Of a stretch of 64,000 bases of DNA, positions 32,839-45,015 are shown in pieces. The stretch is from positions 31,225-95,224 of IMG/VR virus record IMGVR_UViG_3300035703_000041. One strand, 5' to 3'. Every line of letters begins with the position of its first letter. The first letter of the stretch is position 1. The notes beneath the pieces were generated by a model. That model had not been told where the DNA came from. It saw nothing but the letters and a program-made list of their open reading frames with translations, and did no database searches. The stretch is from a virus. Made by a program: the position numbers and the translations under genes.

Positions 32839-34587
32839 TTGGCAGAGCAATCTAACAAACAATCAAATCATGATTTATATAACTTTCAAAAAGGGGAAAA
32901 ATTAGAAAAGCCAAACTTTGCGGTATTCCTGCCTGCCATTTCTACTTTTTACAATACAACAATTAGCAAGCACAGACATACAGGGAGTTATGTTAATCCA
33001 AACAGAATTCCTCAGTCTTTGCCGCATGGTGTTGAAAGCTTAAACTTTTTAGATCCACAAAAAAGTATATTCTTTTATCCGTGGGCGCTTTACTCAGCTG
33101 GACATGCTAATTTAGATGTGTCTAAACCTATACCTAAGGAAAGCATGACACGCGATCGTCCACGAGATGGAACAACATGGTTGCTTGGTGATTCAGGCGG
33201 GTTCCAAATTGGTAAAGGTAAATGGGAAGGAGAGTGGAGAGATCCAACTGGCCCTGAAGTTACAGCACAAATGGCTGCATATGTAGCACAGGGTATTGAA
33301 ACAAAACCCGTATTAGACAAAAATGGTAATCCTAAACTTGATAAAAATGGCAACCCAAAAACAATCAAAATTGATCATGCTAAAAATTATCAAGCAAAAC
33401 TAGATGCAGCACAAGATAAGCGTAAAGCAGTTCTTGAATGGATGGATGCATATATGGATTATGGCATGATCCTTGATATTCCTGCCTGGGTATCACGTAG
33501 CCCAGCTGGCATTGCAGCAACAGGTATTACTAGTTATCAAGAAGCTGTTAACGCAACCAAGTATAATAACGAGTTCTTTATTAAAAACAGAACAGGTGCT
33601 TGTAAGTTCTTAAACGTACTACAGGGCGAAACACATGCAGATGCAGACGATTGGTATCAACAAATGAAAGATTTCTGTGATCCTAAAAAGTACAGCAATC
33701 ACTTTAATGGTTGGGCAATGGGTGGACAGAACATGTGTGATGTACACTTAATTCTCAAACGTTTGGTAGCATTACGGTTTGATGGTTTACTTGAAAAAGG
33801 ATTGCATGATTGGATGCACTTCTTAGGCACAAGCAAACTTGAGTGGGCGCTACTGTTAACTGATTTACAAAGTGCTGTACGCAAGTATCATAATGAAGAT
33901 TTTACTATTAGCTTCGACTGTGCAAGTCCATTCTTAGCAAATGCTAACGGATTAATCTACACTTTTACAAAAGTTGAAGATAGAGAAAAGTGGATTTATA
34001 AGATGGAACCAAGTGTTGATGATCGCAAATACAGCACAGACACAAGACTATTACGTGATGCAATGATACAAGATAAAATTGTTCCTGTATTTGAAGATAG
34101 TTTAGTATCTTCATTATTACAAGTTAAGGATATTTGTACTTATCAACCAGGTGCAGCAAATAAGATGGGCATTGTGTCTAAGACAAGTTGGGATAGCTTT
34201 AGTTACACATTGCAAATGGCTCATAATGTTTGGATGCACTTAGATGCGGTACAAAAAGCTAATGATGCTTATGCAAACAAAAATATGTCACCAAATATGT
34301 TAGTAGATGAACGATTTGATCGTATCTATTTTAGAGATATTATTAATAGTATATTTGAAACAAGCGACAGAGCTGTAGCGGAAGCTAGGATTGAGGAATG
34401 GAATAGCTTTTACTTGCGTATTATTGGACAACGTGGTGCTGTTGGTAAGAAAACTCTAAATAGCAAAACTGCATTTAATGAAATGTTTGATATACCGCCA
34501 GTTAGTTTTGATACAGTTACTATTGAAGATGAATATGTATTAGATCAAAGCAAAGCAGATAAATTAGATGAGGACGAAGATGTTTAA
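32839..34587 (+). CDS. dpdA: 7-deazaguanine DNA transglycosylase (TGT-fold, DpdA family)
   Basis: LGDSGGFQ, MILDIP, LNVLQG, WMHFLG, SFDCASP TGT-barrel motifs; clustered with folE/queD/queE and the polymerase. Confidence 0.8.
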   Translation: MAEQSNKQSNHDLYNFQKGEKLEKPNFAVFLPAISTFYNTTISKHRHTGSYVNPNRIPQSLPHGVESLNFLDPQKSIFFYPWALYSAGHANLDVSKPIPKESMTRDRPRDGTTWLLGDSGGFQIGKGKWEGEWRDPTGPEVTAQMAAYVAQGIETKPVLDKNGNPKLDKNGNPKTIKIDHAKNYQAKLDAAQDKRKAVLEWMDAYMDYGMILDIPAWVSRSPAGIAATGITSYQEAVNATKYNNEFFIKNRTGACKFLNVLQGETHADADDWYQQMKDFCDPKKYSNHFNGWAMGGQNMCDVHLILKRLVALRFDGLLEKGLHDWMHFLGTSKLEWALLLTDLQSAVRKYHNEDFTISFDCASPFLANANGLIYTFTKVEDREKWIYKMEPSVDDRKYSTDTRLLRDAMIQDKIVPVFEDSLVSSLLQVKDICTYQPGAANKMGIVSKTSWDSFSYTLQMAHNVWMHLDAVQKANDAYANKNMSPNMLVDERFDRIYFRDIINSIFETSDRAVAEARIEEWNSFYLRIIGQRGAVGKKTLNSKTAFNEMFDIPPVSFDTVTIEDEYVLDQSKADKLDEDEDV

Positions 34588-34834
34588 GATTGAGGGTGAT
34601 TATATGTATATCAGTACATATGCACAAAACGATTACAGCACTACAAACAACGGGCAACCAGGAATAAAAGTCCAAGTATCCCTAATGCCAAGCATTGCAG
34701 ATTTACTAAGACGTTTAGAAACAATGGAGCGCGAGTGGCAGGAACAGAAGAAACTTATTGACTCAAATCCTGCTGTTAAAGCAAGTTATGATCAATTTCA
34801 ACAAATGATAGCTTTAGCTAAAGAGGCTGCTTAA
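34580..34834 (+). CDS. hypothetical protein
   Basis: GAGGA SD; C-terminal NPAVKASYDQF motif. Confidence 0.65.
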   Translation: MFKIEGDYMYISTYAQNDYSTTNNGQPGIKVQVSLMPSIADLLRRLETMEREWQEQKKLIDSNPAVKASYDQFQQMIALAKEAA

Positions 34835-35346
34835 TGTTAGAGAACAGACAAACTCGTACATTCTTTACTGGTGTTGAAGTTGAACATACAGTTGCGTATG
34901 GTTCTAAAACACTTTTTATTATAGGCACACCATCTATAGATATGATCAACACTGAGATACGTGATCTTGCAGAAGATAACTTTATTACTCAACATTTGTA
35001 TTTTGGTACAAGTCAAACGTATAAAAATATTGATATGGAAACTGCAAAAACTTTTGAACATTTGATCATACATTATCTCGATAATAGTAACTTCTGGGTT
35101 ACACTAGATTTTGATGTAGCAGATATTAATCGTATACATGAAGCTGGCTATTGCAAATATAATCGTTTTATACCAATGATTAGTGTTAAGCTGCCTTATA
35201 TTAATTTGCTTAACTATCATGCTACGCTTAAGCTAGATGATACGCAGTGGGGACACAGTAATCCAGGAGTATGGACACATCACTTGCAAAGCTTGCTTGG
35301 TAAGAATGTCTATACTGATTGGAGCGCATATAAAGGCGATAAATGA
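34834..35346 (+). CDS. hypothetical protein in the dpd cluster
   Basis: Stop-start coupled ORF; FFTGVEVEHT and SNPGVW motifs. Confidence 0.7.
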   Translation: MLENRQTRTFFTGVEVEHTVAYGSKTLFIIGTPSIDMINTEIRDLAEDNFITQHLYFGTSQTYKNIDMETAKTFEHLIIHYLDNSNFWVTLDFDVADINRIHEAGYCKYNRFIPMISVKLPYINLLNYHATLKLDDTQWGHSNPGVWTHHLQSLLGKNVYTDWSAYKGDK

Positions 35347-36236
35347 AAAGTTTAGTTGTTGGGTTAGGTATTGGGCGTTTATATGTAGACGTGTTAGCAA
35401 AGATGGGTGCTGATGTTGTAACTGTTGATACAGATGCAAATAAAAATCCATCTTTCACCAACTTTGCAGAAGCATGTGCTAGTGCTAAGTTTGATACTGT
35501 TCATATTTGCACACCAAACTTTACACATGAAGATCTATTTTATGATTATGTAAAGTCAAACCCAAAAGAAAACAGCATCGTATTTGTTGAGAAACCTGGA
35601 TTTAAAACAGCACAACGTTGGCAAAAAGCTACTGATGCACCTGTTAGACTTATGATGGTTAAAAATAATCAATATAGATCTAATATCAAAGATATGGAAA
35701 ATGATGCAAATAAATCATTAGCGATTTATGGTCGTTGGATAAACTACAATCGTGTTCCAAATCCTGGTACTTGGTTTACTACAAAAGAACTTGCATGGGG
35801 CGGTGTTAGCAGAGATTTAATGCCACATATGTTAAGTTATATTCCCATATTTGTTCCAGATTATAGAAATAGTAAAATAGTTACAAAAATTGTACAACAG
35901 CGTTCTCGCTTATCAGATTTGACGTCAAGCGATTATGGTGTTGTTAAAGAAGATGGAATTTATAATGTTGATGACTATTGTTCGTTACAACTAACTTACA
36001 ATGGTATAAATGTCTTTTTAACTACAGATTGGCGCAGTATGCGTGAAGATGATGTATCAATTGGTATGAATAAAGGATCCATATATACATTAGGACTTTG
36101 TCCAGAAGAAGCGTATGCTACTATGATAAAGACTGCTGTTGAAAAACAAAACAATGCTAATTTTTGGTTTTCACAAAAACTGCAAGATATTTGGATACAC
36201 AAAATACTAGAGGAATTAGATGCAACGAACAGTTAA
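35343..36236 (+). CDS. Gfo/Idh/MocA-family NAD(P)-dependent oxidoreductase
   Basis: VVGLGIG, ICTPNFTH, VFVEKP, GGVSRDLMPH. Confidence 0.88.
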   Translation: MKSLVVGLGIGRLYVDVLAKMGADVVTVDTDANKNPSFTNFAEACASAKFDTVHICTPNFTHEDLFYDYVKSNPKENSIVFVEKPGFKTAQRWQKATDAPVRLMMVKNNQYRSNIKDMENDANKSLAIYGRWINYNRVPNPGTWFTTKELAWGGVSRDLMPHMLSYIPIFVPDYRNSKIVTKIVQQRSRLSDLTSSDYGVVKEDGIYNVDDYCSLQLTYNGINVFLTTDWRSMREDDVSIGMNKGSIYTLGLCPEEAYATMIKTAVEKQNNANFWFSQKLQDIWIHKILEELDATNS

Positions 36237-37131
36237 ACTACTCACTACAAAAGGCGATGGCAAGTTTATTGAAGTAGACTGGGTAAAACCAGAGATTACA
36301 CCGTATGAGATTGAAGTAGCCGCACTTATGACTGGTGTTTGTCGCAGTGATATTGATATGATGAACGGACAGTTTAACTTGCCAATGGAAATGCATGGAC
36401 ACGAAGGACTCGGTGTTGTCACTCGAGTTGGTAGTAGCATTCCAGACGTATTTGTCGGCGACTACGTTGCTACACGCGGCGAACCAGCTTATGCAGACCT
36501 TTATAATGTAGCAGTCGGCTCGTATGTTAAAGTTCCTAAACCAGATCCAAAATACATTGTAGAACCAATCGCTTGCGGTATCAATGTGTTTAGCGAAGCA
36601 ATGCTACGCTCGAATATTTTTAATGGACAACGTATTGCTATTATTGGCACTGGTTTCTTAAGTCATGTTGTTTACACTAATTTTAACATACGTGGTGTAT
36701 GGTCTGGTATTGATATAATTGGAAATCACAATAAAGAATTTTGGGAAGAAGAACATAGCATTGTCGTACAAGAAAAATCAGATGGCAAATATGACGTTGT
36801 AATTGATTTAAGCAATAACGACATTTCATTAACGCAGGACATATACAAACCAAACGCATTGCTAGTATTTGCAAGTTCAAAGCATCCAAGCATTACGAGC
36901 ACGTTTGATCACATTCTTTGGAACGCTGTAACTATGATATGCCCTAGCCCACGTTCACCAGGATTTCATTCGTGTATGCTTGAAGCAGTACATCAAATTG
37001 AAGCTGGTAAATTGGACGTTAGTAACTTTTGGACACGTGGATACAATCGTCATACGCAAGAATGGCGTTTGGCATTTGCGGATAGTTTGGATCGCCCACC
37101 AGGATTCAACCGCGCATACATTTATTGGTAA
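36220..37131 (+). CDS. zinc-dependent medium-chain (sugar/alcohol) dehydrogenase
   Basis: GVCRSD, GHEGLG, VEPIACG, IIGTGFL. Confidence 0.88.
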   Translation: MQRTVKLLTTKGDGKFIEVDWVKPEITPYEIEVAALMTGVCRSDIDMMNGQFNLPMEMHGHEGLGVVTRVGSSIPDVFVGDYVATRGEPAYADLYNVAVGSYVKVPKPDPKYIVEPIACGINVFSEAMLRSNIFNGQRIAIIGTGFLSHVVYTNFNIRGVWSGIDIIGNHNKEFWEEEHSIVVQEKSDGKYDVVIDLSNNDISLTQDIYKPNALLVFASSKHPSITSTFDHILWNAVTMICPSPRSPGFHSCMLEAVHQIEAGKLDVSNFWTRGYNRHTQEWRLAFADSLDRPPGFNRAYIYW

Positions 37132-37145
37132 TACCAATTTAACCT

Positions 37146-37174
37146 TTGACAAAACATTCTTTTTACAGTAGGAT
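37146..37174 (+). promoter_or_regulatory. sigma70-type promoter, probably leaderless transcript
   Basis: TTGACA-17-TAGGAT; ATG 6 nt downstream. Confidence 0.6.
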
Positions 37175-37180
37175 ACGAAA

Positions 37181-37594
37181 ATGCACACAACAGCAGTTGA
37201 CAAAATGATTTGGGTAACATTTAGCAGGGAAGGTATTCACCGTTATCCTGCTGCACTTGAAGATCCCAAACTGAAGACAGGCGATGAATATGATGTAAGT
37301 TTTCTTGGTCATCCCCATAGACATATCTTTCATTTTAAAGTATATATTGAAGTATTCCATGATGATAGGGATATTGAGTTTATCCAATTTAAGCGTTGGC
37401 TCAATAACCTCTATGGTCAAGGTGAATTGCAACTGGATTACAAGTCATGCGAAATGATTGCAAACGACTTGTATCTTAAAATCAACTCCAAGTATCCAAG
37501 GAGAGAAGTATGGATCGAAGTTAGCGAAGATAACGAAAACGGCACTTTTATTAAATTTGAAAACATTGAAATTAATGAGGATGAAGTACAATGA
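37181..37594 (+). CDS. QueD paralog, DpdL-like (proposed CDG decarboxylase)
   Basis: LGHPHRHIF matches the LxxxHRHxF signature; SCEMIA and VSEDNENG T-fold motifs. Confidence 0.7.
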   Translation: MHTTAVDKMIWVTFSREGIHRYPAALEDPKLKTGDEYDVSFLGHPHRHIFHFKVYIEVFHDDRDIEFIQFKRWLNNLYGQGELQLDYKSCEMIANDLYLKINSKYPRREVWIEVSEDNENGTFIKFENIEINEDEVQ

Positions 37595-37782
37595 AGGAAC
37601 AGCTAACTAAAATTTTCGACGACCTTGATAACTATCGCAAGTTTTGCGTAGAGTATGGGTATGTGTTTAATGAAGCACATCTATACAAGGGTGATACCCC
37701 TTGGGGCCAGTATTCACGCTGGCGTAGGGGAGACCGTGTAGTTGACAATTGGAAGAAGGATAGCCGCTATGTTATGGAATAA
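37591..37782 (+). CDS. hypothetical protein
   Basis: ATGA-coupled 63-aa ORF. Confidence 0.7.
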   Translation: MKEQLTKIFDDLDNYRKFCVEYGYVFNEAHLYKGDTPWGQYSRWRRGDRVVDNWKKDSRYVME

Positions 37783-38194
37783 GCTGCTAGCGGCTGCGCT
37801 GTTTACATTTGCGTTTATTGCTCCTGCCCAAGCAGGTTGGGTAGCCGTAACTGTAGACATTAGCGAACAAAAGATGATTGTACAAACAGAAGATGGAAGC
37901 AAAGAAGTCTATCCTGTTAGTACAGCAGCAGGTCGTAAGGTAACCCCAACTGGAGAGTTCCAACCATACCTTATGCGTAGGATGCATTATTCAAGTCGTT
38001 ACAATAATGCGCCAATGCCGTTTAGTATTTTCTACAGCGGCAACTATGCAATCCATGGAACTGAGCATATTAAAAAGCTTGGGCGACCAGCAAGTAAGGG
38101 CTGTGTGAGATTGCATCCAGAACATGCAGAACGATTGTTTAGCATGGTAAAAGCAGTAGGTATGGATAATACCTACATTAGGATCGTACCCTGA
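37769..38194 (+). CDS. L,D-transpeptidase (YkuD family) with signal peptide
   Basis: YAIHGT...LGRPASKGCVRL catalytic motif; signal peptide ending AQA; start moved to 37769 (AAGGA SD). Confidence 0.9.
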   Translation: MLWNKLLAAALFTFAFIAPAQAGWVAVTVDISEQKMIVQTEDGSKEVYPVSTAAGRKVTPTGEFQPYLMRRMHYSSRYNNAPMPFSIFYSGNYAIHGTEHIKKLGRPASKGCVRLHPEHAERLFSMVKAVGMDNTYIRIVP

Positions 38195-38466
38195 ACGAAA
38201 TAGAATACATTATTGAAGAAACTCCAGTCGAGGCCAATTGGTTTCGGCTGGAGTTGCCATTTAAACGTGCAGAAGGTCTATACAAATGGCGCCAAGGAAA
38301 TGATAGGCTACACAAAATTAAAGAATTTATGACTAATGAAGGTTATCGCATTAATATAGATTTCAAGATAGAACCCATGTATTATTACGACAGTATTGTA
38401 ATATTTCTCTCCCCAAGGATTGAGAAGTATGCAAGTATGATAATTTTAAAATGGGATCCTAAATGA
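38191..38466 (+). CDS. hypothetical protein of the short LRW/LKW-ending family; probable CTG start
   Basis: Open frame extends back to CTG at 38191, which overlaps the upstream TGA and has AGGA 7 nt upstream; ends ASMIILKWDPK. Confidence 0.55.
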   Translation: MNEIEYIIEETPVEANWFRLELPFKRAEGLYKWRQGNDRLHKIKEFMTNEGYRINIDFKIEPMYYYDSIVIFLSPRIEKYASMIILKWDPK

Positions 38467-39506
38467 GCAAAGTATATATCGTAGACATTGAAGCAGTAGA
38501 CACACGTTACACTAAGCAATGGAAAGAACACTTACCTAAACAAATGCGTGAAGCAGGGTTGGATGTTGTAAAAATATCTGGTGGTGATGTGCCAATGGCA
38601 ACTACCCCAGGTGCGTTTTTAAACTTTGCTGGTACTAACAACTACAAAGCACAGCAAATGATTGAAATTAGCCGTGAGTTTGCATTTGGCAATATCAAAG
38701 ACGGCGATTATTTTCTTTACACAGATGCATGGAACCCAACTGTAATACAGCTTAAGTATATGGCTGAACTGCTTGGTGTTAAGATCCGCATTGGTGGTAT
38801 GTGGCATGCCGGTAGTTATGATCCACATGATTTCCTAGGACGACTAATTGGCAATAAGCCATGGGTGCGTAGTGCTGAAAGCAGCATGAAATCTTGTTAT
38901 GATGACAATTTCTTTGCTACACAGTTTCACGTTGATTTATTTAATACTGCATTTACATTAGACGACAGTGTTAAGATTGTTGGTTGGCCAATGGAATATC
39001 TAGTTCCACTTTTAACGCCATATAGCAACCTAGTAAAGAAGAACAAGATTATCTTCCCGCACAGACTTGCACCAGAGAAGCAATTAGACATCTTTAAGGA
39101 TCTTGCTGCAAGTATGCCAGAATATGAATGGTTTATTGCACAGGAGCATGAACTAACGAAGGACGAATATCACAAGCACATGGCTGAGAGTAAGGTCATG
39201 TTTAGTGCTAACTTGCAAGAGACACTTGGTATTAGCGCATACGAAGCTGCACTAGTTGGTACATATCCAATGGTACCAAAACGTCTTAGCTATACTGAGA
39301 TGTGGGATGAAACATATCCAGAACGTTGGGTTACAAGCTTTAAAGCATACCAAGACAACAAAGGTTATTTAATGCAGTTCATTCGTAATACAATGGAACG
39401 CAATGATTTGTATGAGGTATCAAAAGATATGGCTGCTAAGGCTAATAAACAGTTCTTTAGTGGTGCAGCATTATACTCGACTATTAAACAATACATGGTC
39501 GCCTAA
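38463..39506 (+). CDS. GT-B fold (GT4-like) glycosyltransferase
   Basis: FPHRLAPEKQ and QETLGISAYEA (E-x7-E) motifs. Confidence 0.85.
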   Translation: MSKVYIVDIEAVDTRYTKQWKEHLPKQMREAGLDVVKISGGDVPMATTPGAFLNFAGTNNYKAQQMIEISREFAFGNIKDGDYFLYTDAWNPTVIQLKYMAELLGVKIRIGGMWHAGSYDPHDFLGRLIGNKPWVRSAESSMKSCYDDNFFATQFHVDLFNTAFTLDDSVKIVGWPMEYLVPLLTPYSNLVKKNKIIFPHRLAPEKQLDIFKDLAASMPEYEWFIAQEHELTKDEYHKHMAESKVMFSANLQETLGISAYEAALVGTYPMVPKRLSYTEMWDETYPERWVTSFKAYQDNKGYLMQFIRNTMERNDLYEVSKDMAAKANKQFFSGAALYSTIKQYMVA

Positions 39507-39556
39507 ATATTGCTTATAGTTGCAACAAACTATATTATACACATTAGGAGTTAACA

Positions 39557-40231
39557 ATGAAAGTTTCAGAACAGATTCGCCAACGAATATTGAATGCTGG
39601 CGCAAAGTTTCACAGCAATGACAACATTGCAGATTTTATCAATGAAGGCGAACTTGATCAACTTGTAGATGAAGTTGCCTTAGAGTTTCAAGATGTATTA
39701 CAGTCGCTTGTAATTGATACAGATCATGATCATAATACACAAGACACTGCAAGGCGTGTAGCCAAGATGTTTGTCTTAGAAACATTTAATGGTCGCTATC
39801 GCCCAGTACCAAAAGTAACAGCATTCCCTAACATGGGTTACAAGAGTTTATATACTACAGGTCCTATTTCTATTCGCAGCACATGCGCTCATCACTTTCA
39901 AAACATTGTTGGACGTTGCTGGGTTGGTATTGTCCCAGAAGATGAAGTAATTGGATTAAGCAAGTTCAATAGGCTTGTGCATCATATTTGCGAACGTCCT
40001 CAGATTCAAGAGGAAATGACTACGCAAATTGCAGAGGCGTTAAAGAAGTATGCAAAGACAGAAAACATTGCAGTGCTGGTTAAAGCAGAACATCACTGCA
40101 TGACAATGCGTGGTGTGCGCGAACATGAAAGCGATATGACTACGGCTATTATGCTTGGTGCGTTTGATACACATGCCCCACTTAAGAAAGAATTTTATGA
40201 CATCTGCTTAAGCATGAAAGGTCATGGTTAA
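39557..40231 (+). CDS. folE: GTP cyclohydrolase I
   Basis: DTARRVAKM, STCAHH, IGLSKFNR, PQIQE, AEHHCMTMRGV. Confidence 0.96.
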   Translation: MKVSEQIRQRILNAGAKFHSNDNIADFINEGELDQLVDEVALEFQDVLQSLVIDTDHDHNTQDTARRVAKMFVLETFNGRYRPVPKVTAFPNMGYKSLYTTGPISIRSTCAHHFQNIVGRCWVGIVPEDEVIGLSKFNRLVHHICERPQIQEEMTTQIAEALKKYAKTENIAVLVKAEHHCMTMRGVREHESDMTTAIMLGAFDTHAPLKKEFYDICLSMKGHG

Positions 40232-40581
40232 TGGCAACAAACGTACCAAATATTACAGTATCAGGTACAGGCGCTGTTGGAGCATCATCTGGATTATACC
40301 TAACTGGTACAGGGGGTGGTGGAGTTCAATTTATAAATGCTGCTAGTACATATACAACATATGCGAACGCTGTACCTTCTTTTTCAAATGACATCATAAT
40401 ACATAGAGATGGTAAACCTAATATCAAAGTAGCAGAAACATTAGAAATGCTGATGGATAGACTTTGCATTATACTGCCAGCAATGGAGTTAATTGAGAAA
40501 TATCCTGCATTACGAGATGCATACGAAAATTACAAACTTATTGAAGCAATGGTAAAGAACGGAAATGAAGATAATGAATAG
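40231..40581 (+). CDS. hypothetical protein
   Basis: Low-complexity N-terminus; KYPALRDAYENY motif. Confidence 0.7.
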   Translation: MATNVPNITVSGTGAVGASSGLYLTGTGGGGVQFINAASTYTTYANAVPSFSNDIIIHRDGKPNIKVAETLEMLMDRLCIILPAMELIEKYPALRDAYENYKLIEAMVKNGNEDNE

Positions 40582-40945
40582 AAGTAGAAAAAAATCATAC
40601 GGTTCATCGCCTGGTGTTTATATTGATTATGATGACGCACCTAAAAGAAAAAATCGTCGATCATTAAAACAATGGTTGCGTGATTATTTAAAGGAAGAAC
40701 CTGAAAAGGTATACCCAGCAGAAGCAATACCACAATCACACGTTTCATTTGCTAAAAGTTTTGAAGGTTGGAATATTAGATTGCATCGTGCTAATGGCGG
40801 TCACATTGTTGAGGCATGGAAAAATGAAGATGGCCCAATGTCTTCAAACTATAAACCTCCACATGAATTGTTTATGGTACAAGACAGCGAAGACATGGGC
40901 GAAAGATTAAATAGCATTTTAGTTCAACTAATGCTACGAGGTTAA
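40574..40945 (+). CDS. hypothetical protein
   Basis: ORF in operon; RLHRANGGHIVE. Confidence 0.7.
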   Translation: MNRSRKKSYGSSPGVYIDYDDAPKRKNRRSLKQWLRDYLKEEPEKVYPAEAIPQSHVSFAKSFEGWNIRLHRANGGHIVEAWKNEDGPMSSNYKPPHELFMVQDSEDMGERLNSILVQLMLRG

Positions 40946-40946
40946 C

Positions 40947-41237
40947 ATGGAACCAGATGAAAATAAAGTAACTTGGACTGTCGTTGCAGATCAAACTGAG
41001 GACGAAGTTTTTTACGATTATGATTCTAGCGATTTTAAAATTACTTTTGCAAACATAGATATTAATTATGATAATGACAGCACTTATGGTGTAGTGCCGG
41101 AAGAAAATAATCCTTTACTATATACAAGCTATGAGCAACGGGAGCAACATGATAAATATCCAGCGTTGAAAAAAGCGTGGGAAGATTATGTTAAAATGTT
41201 TAATCTAACTAAAGGAGAACCTCCAGTTGTCGACTAA
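40947..41237 (+). CDS. acidic hypothetical protein
   Basis: GAGG SD; KYPALKKAWEDY motif. Confidence 0.7.
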   Translation: MEPDENKVTWTVVADQTEDEVFYDYDSSDFKITFANIDINYDNDSTYGVVPEENNPLLYTSYEQREQHDKYPALKKAWEDYVKMFNLTKGEPPVVD

Positions 41238-41436
41238 TGATTTTGAAAATAGATATAAGGATTGGCATCAAAAAATCAGTTTCTTAAAAAGTGGCATTCG
41301 TATTGCTGCTTGTCTAGGAACCATTATAATTTTAATGTTGTATGGAGTTCATGACATCATATCAATTTCAGTACTGTTACTATCTATTGGACTATTGTTA
41401 GCTGAAATTCTTGGAATTTTTGAGGAATGGATTTAA
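41227..41436 (+). CDS. small membrane protein
   Basis: Two hydrophobic segments; AAGGAG SD. Confidence 0.7.
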   Translation: MSTNDFENRYKDWHQKISFLKSGIRIAACLGTIIILMLYGVHDIISISVLLLSIGLLLAEILGIFEEWI

Positions 41437-41789
41437 GCAATAAAATTCGCTATATTTCTCATTTCGATGAATTAACATGGCGACCACATTTACTTGAACG
41501 CCCATTTAATGAAATAAAAGTTCCGTATATGGGTCGCCCATCTTTTGTTACTTGGATAAACACAAATGTAGAATCATATGTATACATTTGGTCTGGTGTA
41601 ATTACCCCTGAGCCTAACGAGAGCAATTGGGGTAGATTAATTGCGCCAGACAAAGAAACTACATTTTTAATTTTTAATAATGAAGGTGATCAAACACGTT
41701 ATACATTAGAGTTTGTAGGTAGTGATAATACTATACATGTCAAAATTCACAAAAACGGATTGGATGCTTATCACAGCAGAAGAAAATAA
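41427..41789 (+). CDS. hypothetical protein
   Basis: ORF overlapping the upstream stop. Confidence 0.65.
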   Translation: MDLSNKIRYISHFDELTWRPHLLERPFNEIKVPYMGRPSFVTWINTNVESYVYIWSGVITPEPNESNWGRLIAPDKETTFLIFNNEGDQTRYTLEFVGSDNTIHVKIHKNGLDAYHSRRK

Positions 41790-41831
41790 ATATTGTTGCT
41801 AATGCAACGTTAGCTTATAATCATAGCTATA

Positions 41832-41883
41832 AGAGGTCTTAACACTCACCCCTCTCAAAGAATTCTGCGTGTTAAACAGAAAG
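41832..41883 (+). ncRNA. candidate preQ1-I-like riboswitch variant in the queD leader
   Basis: AGAGG/CCTCT stem, loop ending CAC(C), A-rich tail; TTAACAC (41839-45) complementary to GTGTTAA (41869-75); TATAAT at 41816. Confidence 0.55.
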
Positions 41884-41890
41884 ATTTATT

Positions 41891-42391
41891 ATGGCGAATA
41901 TACCTGTAACTTACAAATATACATCTACAAAAGAATATCACGATGCATTCCCATGTGCATATAGACAATGGCGTGCAGACAGTCATTGCAACATGATCCA
42001 TGGATACAGCTTCTCTATGAAGTTTTACTTTGGCACTAACGATCTCGATGTACGCAATTGGGCAGCAGATTATGGTGGTTTAAAAGAACTTAAGAAGGTA
42101 TTAGAAGATCAGTTTGATCACACGTTACTTGTTGCAGAAGATGATCCAGAGATGGAAACATTTAAGATGCTGCAAGACAAGAAACTTGCAAAGCTAACTA
42201 TACTTCCCAAATTAGGATGTGAAGGTTTAGCTGATATGCTTTACAAATATGTAAATGGTGTATATATTCCTGATATGTGGGGACCAAGCGAAGCTGCAAG
42301 GCTTTGGTGTTATAGAGTTGAAGTGCGTGAAACACAAGCTAACATGGCATTTAGAGAAGGTCACCGAGAGTGGAATGAGGAACTGTTTTGA
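41891..42391 (+). CDS. queD: 6-carboxy-5,6,7,8-tetrahydropterin synthase
   Basis: HCNMIHGY (CxxxHG), DYGGLK, FDHTLL, GCEGLA, VRET. Confidence 0.9.
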   Translation: MANIPVTYKYTSTKEYHDAFPCAYRQWRADSHCNMIHGYSFSMKFYFGTNDLDVRNWAADYGGLKELKKVLEDQFDHTLLVAEDDPEMETFKMLQDKKLAKLTILPKLGCEGLADMLYKYVNGVYIPDMWGPSEAARLWCYRVEVRETQANMAFREGHREWNEELF

Positions 42392-42564
42392 AAACAGCAA
42401 CTGGTGTAGCACTAATTATTATAGCCACAATCACATTATTCTATTTCATTGTTAGTAAGGAAATGGAATTTATTGATCGTTGTGAAAAGGCTGGTGGTGC
42501 ACCAGTAGTTGGAAAAGGCATACAAGCTTGTTTAAAACGAGACATGGTGGTACCAGTACAATGA
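42388..42564 (+). CDS. small membrane-anchored protein (58 aa, not in ORF track)
   Basis: TTG start overlapping the queD stop with GAGGA SD; N-terminal TM helix; CEKAGG...C. Confidence 0.6.
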   Translation: MKTATGVALIIIATITLFYFIVSKEMEFIDRCEKAGGAPVVGKGIQACLKRDMVVPVQ

Positions 42565-42752
42565 CACAGTATCCAAAAGATCTAGGTAACAATCGTTGGA
42601 TTGTTGAAGTAAGAACGCAGGGCGGGAGCGATGAACTATACATTGAACTCCCGCCCCGTGCGCTAAACCAAATGGGATGGGACGTTGGTGACATTATTCT
42701 CTGGGAAGAACAAGAAAATGGTTCTTACATAATAAGGAAAAAAGATGAGTGA
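42561..42752 (+). CDS. AbrB/MazE-like swapped-hairpin DNA-binding protein
   Basis: LYIELP...LNQMGWDVGDIILW...GSYIIRK. Confidence 0.65.
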   Translation: MTQYPKDLGNNRWIVEVRTQGGSDELYIELPPRALNQMGWDVGDIILWEEQENGSYIIRKKDE

Positions 42753-42945
42753 ACAACTTACATTATACTTTGTTGGACTTAGAGATAAGAATCATAGAGT
42801 AACAATTCAATCTGCTGCTGCGATGACGTATGATGAAGCAATTGAGAAAGTTCTTGCAGCGCCAATAATGGAAAACATAGTAGCATATACTAGAATGTCA
42901 AACGCAGATGAATTAGTATGGATAGATATAGATGAACAAAATTAA
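42745..42945 (+). CDS. hypothetical protein
   Basis: ORF in operon with AAGGA SD. Confidence 0.6.
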   Translation: MSEQLTLYFVGLRDKNHRVTIQSAAAMTYDEAIEKVLAAPIMENIVAYTRMSNADELVWIDIDEQN

Positions 42946-43780
42946 AATTAGTGAAATTTTTTACAGCCTACAAGGTGAAGGACAATATGTTGGTGTACCT
43001 TCCATCTTTATGCGAACGTTTGGATGTAACTTTACTTGCAGTGGATTTGGTATGCCTGCAGGAGAACTTAGCACAGAAAGGGATAATGTAGATGCTAAAT
43101 CGTTTATTGACTACCGTGACTTACCATTGGTATCGACTGGTTGTGATAGCTATGCTAGTTGGGATCCTCGCTTTAAGCATCTTTCACCACTACTCGATAT
43201 AAGCGCAATTATTGAACGTTTTAAAGACCTATTACCAGATGGTAAGTTTGGACGCGACAAACACTTAATCATTACAGGTGGTGAACCATTACTTGGATGG
43301 CAACGTAGCTATCCAGAGCTACTTAAAGAATGCATGAAGATGGGGCTTACACATCTTACATTTGAAACAAATGGCACACAACCTATATCAGATGAACTTT
43401 GGGGTTTTCTAAATAGTCAATCAGTATGGCCTGGACTTGAAGTAACATTCTCTATCTCAGCTAAACTACCATGCAGTGGTGAAAAGTGGGAAGAAGCAAT
43501 ACGCCCTGATGTTGTTAAGGGTTACGTAAACATTAAGGATCATCGTAGTTACTTTAAATTTGTTGTAAGCACACAACAAGACGTTGAAGATGCAATGCGA
43601 GCTAAAGCAGAATATGAAGCTGCTGGCATTAAAATTCCAGTATATCTAATGCCTGTTGGCGGTGTTAATAGCGTATATGAATTAAACGAAAGACAAGTAG
43701 CAGATTTTTGCAGGGATAATGGTTTACGTTTTAGCCCACGTATTCAAGTACCTTTATGGAAAAACCAGTGGGGTACCTAA
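42932..43780 (+). CDS. queE: 7-carboxy-7-deazaguanine synthase (radical SAM)
   Basis: EIFYSLQGEG, RTFGCNFTC...CDS (expanded cysteine motif), ITGGEP, FETNGT. Confidence 0.93.
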   Translation: MNKIKISEIFYSLQGEGQYVGVPSIFMRTFGCNFTCSGFGMPAGELSTERDNVDAKSFIDYRDLPLVSTGCDSYASWDPRFKHLSPLLDISAIIERFKDLLPDGKFGRDKHLIITGGEPLLGWQRSYPELLKECMKMGLTHLTFETNGTQPISDELWGFLNSQSVWPGLEVTFSISAKLPCSGEKWEEAIRPDVVKGYVNIKDHRSYFKFVVSTQQDVEDAMRAKAEYEAAGIKIPVYLMPVGGVNSVYELNERQVADFCRDNGLRFSPRIQVPLWKNQWGT

Positions 43781-43783
43781 AAA

Positions 43784-43838
43784 ATTACCCCAAGTATTTT
43801 AGTTAAAATGCTAAATAAACTATAATGCTTGGGGTAAT
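43784..43838 (+). promoter_or_regulatory. long hairpin sequestering the endonuclease RBS, with a late promoter in its loop
   Basis: ATTACCCCAAGTATT pairs with AATGCTTGGGGTAAT; TAAATA at 43812. Confidence 0.7.
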
Positions 43839-43841
43839 AGA

Positions 43842-44597
43842 ATGACAAATCCAAAAAATAAAAAAACACATGAAGAATTTGAAAAAGAGCTAAAAAATAA
43901 ACACCCAACAATAATGCTATTAGAAAATTATATAAACACCGACACTAAACTTAGATATAAATGTGATCACGGAGAGAACTCTGCTCGTCCTTGGCAACTG
44001 CTTACAATGAAGCATTGTTGTAGGAAAGGATATTATTCTTCAGGTGTTATGTGGGATAAACGCACGTTGACTTTAGAGCAAGTTAAAGAAAAAGCGTTAA
44101 AAACTCGAAAAAACATTGATGTAAGTGAATGTTATATTGAAACAGAAAAATATAAAAAAATACTGAATATTAAATGTACCGTGCATAACGTTTATTATTC
44201 AAGTTATGTAAAAGGTAAAATTGGACTTTGTCCAAAATGTAATGAAGAAAGAAATTTAGCACAATTAGCAGTAGCTATGCCGTTAGCTTGGGCAAGTCAA
44301 AAAAATGGTAGTTTTGTCTCTAAAAAAGAAACAAAATGGTTAGATTCTCTTGGAATAGAAAACAGACAAGTCTGGTTAGAAGATGTAAAATATAAAGTAG
44401 ATGGATACGACCCAAATACTAATACTGTATATCTATATCATGGAAAATTTTGGCATGGTTGTCCTGAAACATTTGATCCTGAAATGATACATCCAGTTGT
44501 AAAAATTCCAATGAAAGATTTGTATCAAAAAACTTTATTTTATGAGAGAAAGATTAAAAGTGCAGGATACAACTTAATAATAAAATGGGAAGAATAA
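43842..44597 (+). CDS. free-standing putative homing endonuclease (Zn-finger repeats plus Vsr/DUF559-like PD-(D/E)xK domain)
   Basis: KC.H and CPKC; KVDGYD...YLYHGKFWHG...GYNLIIKWE; AT-rich. Confidence 0.75.
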   Translation: MTNPKNKKTHEEFEKELKNKHPTIMLLENYINTDTKLRYKCDHGENSARPWQLLTMKHCCRKGYYSSGVMWDKRTLTLEQVKEKALKTRKNIDVSECYIETEKYKKILNIKCTVHNVYYSSYVKGKIGLCPKCNEERNLAQLAVAMPLAWASQKNGSFVSKKETKWLDSLGIENRQVWLEDVKYKVDGYDPNTNTVYLYHGKFWHGCPETFDPEMIHPVVKIPMKDLYQKTLFYERKIKSAGYNLIIKWEE

Positions 44598-44598
44598 T

Positions 44599-45015
44599 AT
44601 GTCATTGTGGAATAAATTTTTAGAAGCACTTGCGCCGCCTGAGGCTCAATTAAAGTTTAAGCAGGAAAGTAAATCAAAGAAACCACGCAAACCTAAAGTA
44701 ACTAAAACTCCAAAAGAGATTGCTAACGAAAAAGGTGAACCATATATTTCTGTAGTTTCAGTTGATTTAGACAAAGCAAATGTTGGCAACGGTTCTTTTG
44801 AACTTGATTGGAACGACACATTTATTAAGCAACTACGTGCCGCTGGTTATCCTGGTAAAACAGATGAAGATGTAGTTGACATGTGGTTTAGAAGTGTATG
44901 TCGTAATGTATTAGCAGAAGCTTATGAACAAGAAGTTGCTCAAAAATCTCCACCAGATAATGTACGATACATTAATCGTAAAACTGGGGACGATGGTAAA
45001 ACAGAAGTTTCATGA
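44599..45015 (+). CDS. hypothetical protein
   Basis: GSFELDWN...VVDMWF. Confidence 0.75.
   Translation: MSLWNKFLEALAPPEAQLKFKQESKSKKPRKPKVTKTPKEIANEKGEPYISVVSVDLDKANVGNGSFELDWNDTFIKQLRAAGYPGKTDEDVVDMWFRSVCRNVLAEAYEQEVAQKSPPDNVRYINRKTGDDGKTEVS

Follow-up and report, generated by a model that had tools for sequence, protein, structure and literature searches.

The leader of a QueD-like gene in an uncultured phage raises the question of whether a virus encodes a metabolite-sensing RNA of its own and whether this RNA belongs to the preQ1-I riboswitches, as the original prediction made from this DNA had proposed. The DNA analysed here (the window, 64,000 nucleotides) comprises bases 31225-95224 of a 95-kb IMG/VR record with an estimated completeness of 26%. 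Given that the genomes of its relatives reach 353-355 kb and are 98-100% complete, the window is a piece of a giant uncultured phage, and the phage group from which it comes has been seen mostly in freshwater metagenomes. The window contains the gene for GTP cyclohydrolase I (folE, 39557-40231), the candidate regulated gene, which is on the plus strand (41891-42391) and encodes a QueD-like PTPS-family protein of 166 aa (Pfam PTPS, 57.9 bits; PHROG QueD-like, 5e-37), and a gene for a QueE-like radical-SAM protein (42932-43780). A megablast search with 39500-44600 against GenBank phages gave no match.

The absence of queC from the window, on which the original prediction remarked, is borne out, as no queC was detected in the whole 95-kb record. 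Similarly, no TGT/DpdA family gene was detected in this record with the Pfam TGT and PHROG models, which divergent DpdA families may escape, and in five near-complete relatives there was no TGT match and QueC-like matches were only partial or weak. The complete 353-355-kb relatives (the records behind L099, L142 and L159) carry FolE, QueD-like and QueE-like genes with no Pfam TGT/DpdA match and at best a partial QueC-like match, one 100%-complete genome having none. Upstream of folE, the region 32839-39506 encodes an unannotatable protein of 582 aa, a Gfo/Idh/MocA-like oxidoreductase, a Zn-ADH-like protein, a protein with a YkuD L,D-transpeptidase domain and a weakly GT1-like ORF; no DpdA is recognisable among these ORFs by Pfam or PHROGs.

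The window protein scores 34.6 bits with the NCBIfam QueD model, the cut-off of which is 89, and the PTPS-family proteins linked to the RNA motif described below all lie in the same range (31-37 bits for the window, L088, L096, L100, L151 and L159). All motif-linked proteins share an RQWR..SHC..HGY signature, in which HGY stands in place of the HGH of QueD and thus puts a tyrosine at the third zinc-binding histidine. Their cultured-phage homologues, with identities of up to 51%, are annotated as QueD or PTPS.

The pseudoknot and its conservation

An H-type pseudoknot lies at 41832-41875, 16 nt upstream of the ATG of the QueD-like gene, and every element on which the original prediction was built is present in the DNA (TATAAT, AGAGG, the loop, CCTCT, CAAAGAA, TTCTG, GTGTTAA, CAGAA and the ATG). 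Read along the plus strand, a -10-like hexamer TATAAT (41816-41821) stands 10 nt upstream of helix P1, the 5' strand of which (AGAGG, 41832-41836) pairs with CCUCU (41851-41855). The loop between these strands, TCTTAACACTCACC (41837-41850), is divided into L1 (UC, 41837-41838), the 5' strand of helix P2 (UUAACAC, 41839-41845) and L2 (UCACC, 41846-41850). P1 is followed by L3 (41856-41868), which consists of the A-rich CAAAGAA and the invariant UUCUGC, and then by the P2 3' strand GUGUUAA (41869-41875), which is a perfect complement of 41839-41845, as had been proposed for the 7-bp TTAACAC/GTGTTAA pairing.

The original prediction placed this second strand in the loop of a TTCTG/CAGAA hairpin. 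The complementarity exists in the window (UUCUG, 41863-41867, within L3; CAGAA, 41877-41881); as a family feature, the hairpin was rejected, as among the closest relatives L207 alone has it in full, L206 and L209 retain UCU/AGA and L208 has none of it, and as TTCTG lies within the invariant single-stranded YUCUGC. The window-specific hairpin would therefore compete with this invariant element and not belong to the aptamer. Two small palindromes lie between the stop codon of the upstream gene and the knot: GTTGC-TAAT-GCAAC (41795-41808), which is terminator-like on the minus strand, and TAGCT...AGCTA (41811-41829), which brackets TATAAT. A late-promoter-like element, AATAAATA, is located at about 41785-41793.

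Single-sequence folding of the window leader was no better than chance, with z = -0.22 for 41829-41905 and z = -2.3 for 41825-41900. Because the thermodynamics of the single sequence are unremarkable, the case for the pseudoknot rests on comparison between sequences. A viral search with the QueD-like protein returned more than 593 loci, the best 80 of which were taken; among the 81 leaders obtained with the window included, 78 have the stem-loop-tail arrangement. Pooling of the loci found through the QueD-like protein with those from a pattern search that was blind to the gene gave at least 168 distinct leaders from IMG/VR contigs in which the same knot precedes a QueD-like gene. In the consensus, AGCGG (P1 5' strand) is followed by N-C-U-U and a variable insert (L1), 4-7 nt of the P2 5' strand, UCAYC (L2), CCGCU (P1 3' strand), WUAMAAA-YUCUGC (L3) and the P2 3' strand. 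The last C of L2 is present in 168 of 168 leaders, preceded by U in 138, C in 27 and A in 3. In L3, A3, A7, U9, C10 and G12 are each found in 168/168 and the next C in 167/168, an invariance that was partly imposed by the search pattern and that model-based matches show likewise. L1 is looser at its first position (C 81, U 56, A 31) and has C at its second in 157 of 168.

Both helices covary, which is the check that had been proposed for the original prediction. In a model-derived alignment of 90 distinct rows, P1 is paired in 99.8% of cases, the first list of instances having required P1 pairing, and four of its five pairs covary (AGCGG, AGAGG, AGUGG, ACCGG, UGCGG). The P2 columns are paired in 78.7% of cases and all five pairs change on both sides, so that nine of ten pairs, including those of the pseudoknot helix, show compensatory changes. 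The covariation score of 0.388 was reached in none of 500 shuffles (0.146 +/- 0.011), a test that overstates the independence of the sequences because most of them come from one related phage group; with the partners slid against each other, the score was at most 0.107. For P2, an in-register permutation test (mean 4.39 bp versus 3.06 +/- 0.20; none of 2000 permutations reached the observed value, with the same overstatement of independence) was used in place of an unconstrained best-helix test (4.7 versus 4.2 bp). An alternative register of P2 with an L2 of 6 nt is paired in 35% of cases and suits a minority of sequences. More than 20 different P2 helix sequences occur in the family, and the window differs from the common GACAC/GUGUC by one compensated change from G-C to A-U (AACAC/GUGUU).

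These data bear on the simplest alternative, that the complementarity arose by chance or that the element is a promoter or operator acting at the DNA level without an RNA structure. Such an explanation would account for the weak single-sequence z-scores and for the promoter-like hexamers that overlap the element in relatives. Because of the covariation in nine of ten pairs, the pseudoknot helix included, we regard it as effectively refuted, with hardly any probability left to it; the strictly conserved orientation of the element relative to the gene also speaks against it. With the arrangement shared by 168 leaders and both helices covarying, we take the pseudoknot to be almost certainly real despite the weak fold of the single sequence.

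Association with QueD-like genes

A covariance model built from the phage motif (R1) finds exactly one copy in the window and in the 95-kb record (44.3 bits), one copy per related locus, always on the strand of the gene, and one copy in each of five genomes of 286-355 kb, including complete genomes of about 354 kb. Independently of the gene, a 23-nt degenerate pattern derived from L2, P1 and L3 matched at least 120 viral stretches. Among 80 viral loci found in this gene-blind manner, 76 have a PTPS-family gene within 900 nt and one is ended by the edge of the contig. In L122 and L133, the queD-like gene, already picked up by the first search, lies behind an extra ORF (113 aa and 243 aa, respectively), and in L162 it lies just past the 900-nt limit behind an inserted ORF of 293 aa; in these three loci, the knot heads a two-gene unit. 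The motif is thus exclusively associated with QueD-like genes, and given that the downstream proteins diverge to 33% identity (33-94% identity to the window protein), the RNA is tied to an enzyme family and not to one allele. We conclude with considerable confidence that the knot is a cis-regulatory element of the QueD-like gene.

Only one of 100 loci has, besides the main copy of the motif, a further and degenerate one, which scores 27 bits. It is located at L087:6-53, about 1 kb upstream of the main copy, and precedes an ORF of 309 aa resembling class I methyltransferases (L087:68-997); in this copy, P1 has moved (ACCAG/CUGGU), UUCGC stands in place of UCUGC and the P2 5' strand instead finds its partner within the loop.

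Outside uncultured phages, the motif is essentially absent. The 23-nt pattern had three matches in 32 million bacterial and archaeal contigs, and 185,579 bacterial species genomes are practically free of the motif. The two matches in Lachnospiraceae were dismissed as chance matches that have no P2. The one genuine match is on an 8-kb contig (CAZXGO010000106.1; L082) in a Chitinophagales MAG bin, where queD follows the motif. This is probably a mis-binned phage contig, and the bin provides at most a weak hint at a Chitinophagales host; the strong AGGAG Shine-Dalgarno (SD) sequences of the phage would be unusual for a Bacteroidota host. Among cultured phages, R1 finds nothing in the leaders of the nearest QueD homologues (at most 51% identical; Acidovorax ACP17, Xanthomonas X1, Sinorhizobium Phosso and Achromobacter Motura), no cultured phage in GenBank carries the motif, and blastn with a type-1 leader (see below) against cultured phages returned nothing.

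Comparison with the preQ1-I class

The original prediction described the element as a variant resembling preQ1-I and proposed a search with the Rfam PreQ1 model (RF00522). This model gave no match at its gathering threshold (39 bits) or at E<=10 on 41700-42000, and none in the 95-kb record or in nine relatives; across Rfam 15, no relevant family was found in the window or the nine relatives at gathering or at E<=10. As a control, a genuine bacterial preQ1-I aptamer in locus L214 scores 51.6 bits with the PreQ1 model. In the reciprocal test, R1 scores this genuine aptamer at 5.2 bits, and this best match, insignificant as it is, does overlie the aptamer. Judged by these sequence models, the phage motif is not a member of preQ1-I or of another Rfam 15 family.

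The architecture is nevertheless closely similar. For comparison, we used the features described for preQ1-I types I-III, known for example from B. subtilis queC, T. tengcongensis, C. antarcticum and E. coli (PMC11625349). In this class, a conserved G-C pair closing P1 forms the floor of the binding pocket, a specificity C immediately precedes the P1 3' strand and itself follows a U in type I and an A in types II and III, a conserved U in L1 (U6) after the P1 5' strand reads N9 of preQ1, and the last A (A30) of an A-rich L3 adjoins the P2 3' strand (PMC11625349). As expression platform, SD nucleotides are buried in P2 or a terminator is formed, both giving an OFF switch. Like these aptamers, the phage motif forms a small pseudoknot of the H type; its P1 has 5 bp, each of the two pairs that close it being G-C in 89-90 of 90 rows; it has the invariant C before the P1 3' strand (168/168), mostly preceded by U as in type I (in the window, C41850 is preceded by C); an A-rich L3 follows P1; and the motif lies in the leader of a gene of the 7-deazaguanine pathway. 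Unlike them, the phage motif has no conserved U in L1 (C 81, U 56, A 31; the window has U41837), its A-rich stretch is separated from the P2 3' strand (P2') by the invariant 6-nt YUCUGC, its P2 is longer (4-7 bp), its P2 3' strand is complementary to the ribosome-binding site (RBS) instead of containing it, with a predicted ON instead of OFF response, and it is essentially confined to uncultured phages.

The similarities allow that the motif is a true, if divergent, preQ1-I member, one that represses queD upon binding of preQ1 or preQ0. Motif and class have in common the A-rich L3, the G-C pair that floors P1 and a specificity C following U, which is the type I arrangement; the candidate regulated gene belongs to the 7-deazaguanine pathway, and the best match of R1 in the L214 locus overlies the genuine aptamer. 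We consider such membership very unlikely, as neither the window nor nine relatives yield a PreQ1 match at E<=10 and the reciprocal score is 5.2 bits, as the L1 U is not conserved and six invariant nucleotides are inserted between L3 and P2, and as P2' is an anti-RBS strand with ON wiring. What stands of the original prediction is a real, conserved and covarying extended pseudoknot in a phage queD leader with the architecture of preQ1-I (a 5-bp P1 ending in G-C, the invariant C and an A-rich L3); what does not stand is membership in the class. We suggest that the phage motif operates in the manner of the preQ1-I fold, from which it may be descended.

Predicted control of translation and the candidate ligand

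Folding of the expression platforms of the 168 leaders, for which only the segment from YUCUG to AUG+15 was used, provides a clue to what the knot may do. In 144 of 168 of these platform-only folds, nucleotides of P2' pair with the region from the SD sequence to the AUG, and they do so in several designs (CCUAUG/CAUAGG, UGUCAUC/GAUGGCA, CCAUUG/CAAUGG, UGUCUU/GGAGACA). In type 1 (94 leaders), NGCC shares 2 nt with the 5' arm of an SD-covering hairpin (CCUAUG...CAUAGG). In type 2 (56 leaders), a helix spanning the start codon is formed by UGUCAUC or UGCCAUUG with GAUGGCA or CAAUGGCA, such that the AUG is paired at 2.98 of 3 positions, and compensated variants occur (CGUC with G.U; a GUG start with U.G). 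In a third design, UGUCUU pairs with GGAGACA. P2 and the sequestering helix are mutually exclusive in silico, and because they need the same nucleotides, formation of the knot should expose the ribosome site. These folds thus point to ON wiring in most relatives. To our knowledge, every characterised preQ1 riboswitch is a bacterial OFF switch.

The subtype of the window is a rare one, with four contigs as its other members. Its P2 of 7 bp has -7.2 kcal/mol compared to a mean of about -5.4 in the other types, the competing helix has -1.6 to -4.3 kcal/mol and is no better than in shuffles, and the leader has no strong SD sequence. With a strong P2 and a weak competitor, the knot probably stays folded for most of the time and switching is probably shallow. 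The window element is a genuine member of the family, the switching part of which is shallow or differently built. A candidate for a different design is the 5' flank GCUAUAA (41826-41832), which is complementary to UUAUGGC (41889-41895) spanning the start codon; the two pair in the minimum-energy folds of 41825-41900 and 41800-41905, and a complementarity of 7-8 bp between flank and start codon is present in L206-L208. As this flank is present only in transcripts starting upstream of about 41826, its pairing could mask the start codon on longer read-through transcripts.

Where transcripts start is suggested by the hexamers. Of 157 distinct relatives, 138 have a hexamer of the TAAATA/TAAGTA/TATAAT type with its end 4-13 nt upstream of P1, and TATAAT is the likely promoter of the window leader; a sigma-70 consensus scan did not call it because the -35 element is poor. 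The position of the hexamer suggests that the knot is at the very 5' end of the mRNA. In type-1 relatives, the sequence itself also suggests a second start. The last base of P1 together with L3 reads TTTACA or TATACA in 87 of 92 cases, the SD hairpin loop 17-18 nt downstream contains TAnnnT, with TGn in front of it in 84, and position 4 of L3 is C in 81/92 type-1 leaders versus 14/70 others (examples of such embedded promoters are seen in the type-1 leaders L026:2950-3000, L031 and L086). As read from these matches, the type-1 element is a near-consensus sigma-70 promoter overlaid on the candidate aptamer, and transcripts from this promoter would contain neither the knot nor the hairpin's 5' arm. 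No promoter within the hairpin is present in the leader of the window.

The embedded promoter, which in 87 of 92 type-1 relatives would give short transcripts without knot and 5' arm, makes it conceivable that the knot is a structural element that works without a ligand by occupying the anti-RBS strand, stabilising the 5' end of the mRNA or sensing temperature or Mg2+. Its aim could then be different levels of translation for long and short transcripts, and the strong knot and weak competitor of the window are compatible with such a constitutive fold. We judge both the structural role and this aim to be unlikely, given that they leave unexplained why about 15 unpaired nucleotides (UCAYC, A3, A5-A7, UCUGC) are invariant in more than 160 leaders and why the element is exclusively associated with one enzyme family.

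The arrangement in type 1 has a parallel in phage T4, in which the e, soc and I-TevI genes have RBS-sequestering hairpins with an internal promoter. As in T4, the type-1 SD sequence is in the 3' arm and a -10 element in the hairpin loop. Unlike the T4 hairpins, the 5' arm in type 1 also belongs to the covarying pseudoknot helix, and the leader of the window has no embedded promoter. The shared 5' arm possibly adds a second, ligand-dependent route to opening of the hairpin in type-1 relatives.

T4-like phages also use protein-bound RNA operators, as in autoregulation through a pseudoknot in the gene 32 mRNA and in repression by RegA-type proteins. The gene 32 knot nucleates cooperative binding of the protein on an unstructured leader. 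By analogy, a phage protein, either a dedicated regulator or the QueD-like enzyme itself, could bind the knot and control translation of queD. The T4-like context with late-promoter-like TAAATA before P1 and promoters within RBS hairpins, the position of the knot at the 5' end of the leader and the lack of a match to a known riboswitch family all fit this alternative, and like the gene 32 knot, the phage knot is predicted to be an H-type pseudoknot at the 5' end of an mRNA leader that controls translation. The two have no sequence resemblance, and the queD-leader knot, unlike that of gene 32, is in direct competition with a helix that sequesters the RBS, and its conserved unpaired bases are like those of preQ1-I. 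The unpaired RNA is nearly invariant while the encoded proteins diverge to 33% identity, which argues against autoregulation by the encoded enzyme; moreover, the conserved unpaired nucleotides lie exactly where preQ1-I forms its ligand pocket, and there is one site per 354-kb genome as opposed to the many targets of RegA-type regulators. We give a protein-bound operator a small but real chance.

Combining the comparative data with the folding data, we favor on balance a metabolite-sensing riboswitch that turns translation on, in which ligand binding, the identity of the ligand, the direction of control and the 5' end of the transcript are what we infer. Against this reading, the window leader has no convincing RBS-sequestering competitor and its single-sequence fold is not significant. 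In the proposed mechanism, the leader of the QueD-like gene would fold into a compact H-type pseudoknot with a 5-bp P1, a P2 of 4-7 bp and the unpaired UCAYC and WUAMAAA-YUCUGC elements. This knot, most likely the aptamer of a riboswitch specific to phages, would act in cis on translation of the gene. It is presumably stabilised by a ligand resembling guanine, which the invariant C beside P1 would read. In most members, the P2 3' strand would double as the 5' strand of the helix that covers the SD sequence or the start codon, so that formation of the knot would release the ribosome site and allow translation. In the window, the knot may be formed most of the time and act as a shallow switch, or it may work against the helix between 5' flank and start codon on longer transcripts.

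The invariant C suggests that the candidate ligand has a guanine-like Watson-Crick face. This face is common to 7-deazaguanines, guanine nucleotides and pterins including the substrate of QueD. CDG or 7-deazaguanine, put forward in the original prediction, are possible ligands. Control of a biosynthetic gene by the product of its pathway would be unusual for an ON switch, and the predicted ON wiring is a better fit to induction by substrate than to feedback by an end product. Candidate ligands could therefore be 7,8-dihydroneopterin triphosphate, another pterin or a GTP-derived compound, and not the end product. More tentatively, and aware that it may well prove wrong, we propose that the motif is a phage-only riboswitch class, derived from or convergent with the preQ1-I fold, in which the YUCUGC insert enlarges the pocket, the logic is reversed and a ligand with a guanine face, which could be the substrate of the enzyme, activates translation of the QueD-like gene. 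In that case, it would be a feed-forward, phage-encoded metabolite sensor for hypermodification of DNA bases.

We essentially know of no riboswitch class that is confined to viruses. If validated, the motif would be an ON-type relative, confined to phages, of the smallest riboswitch fold known, a natural experiment in which a minimal pseudoknot pocket has been re-tuned by a 6-nt insert, and a compact ligand-activated translational switch for synthetic biology. In the type-1 relatives, a candidate RNA aptamer and a DNA promoter are encoded in the same 45 bases. Validation would also imply that phages evolve their own metabolite sensors to time the enzymes of the 7-deazaguanine pathway.
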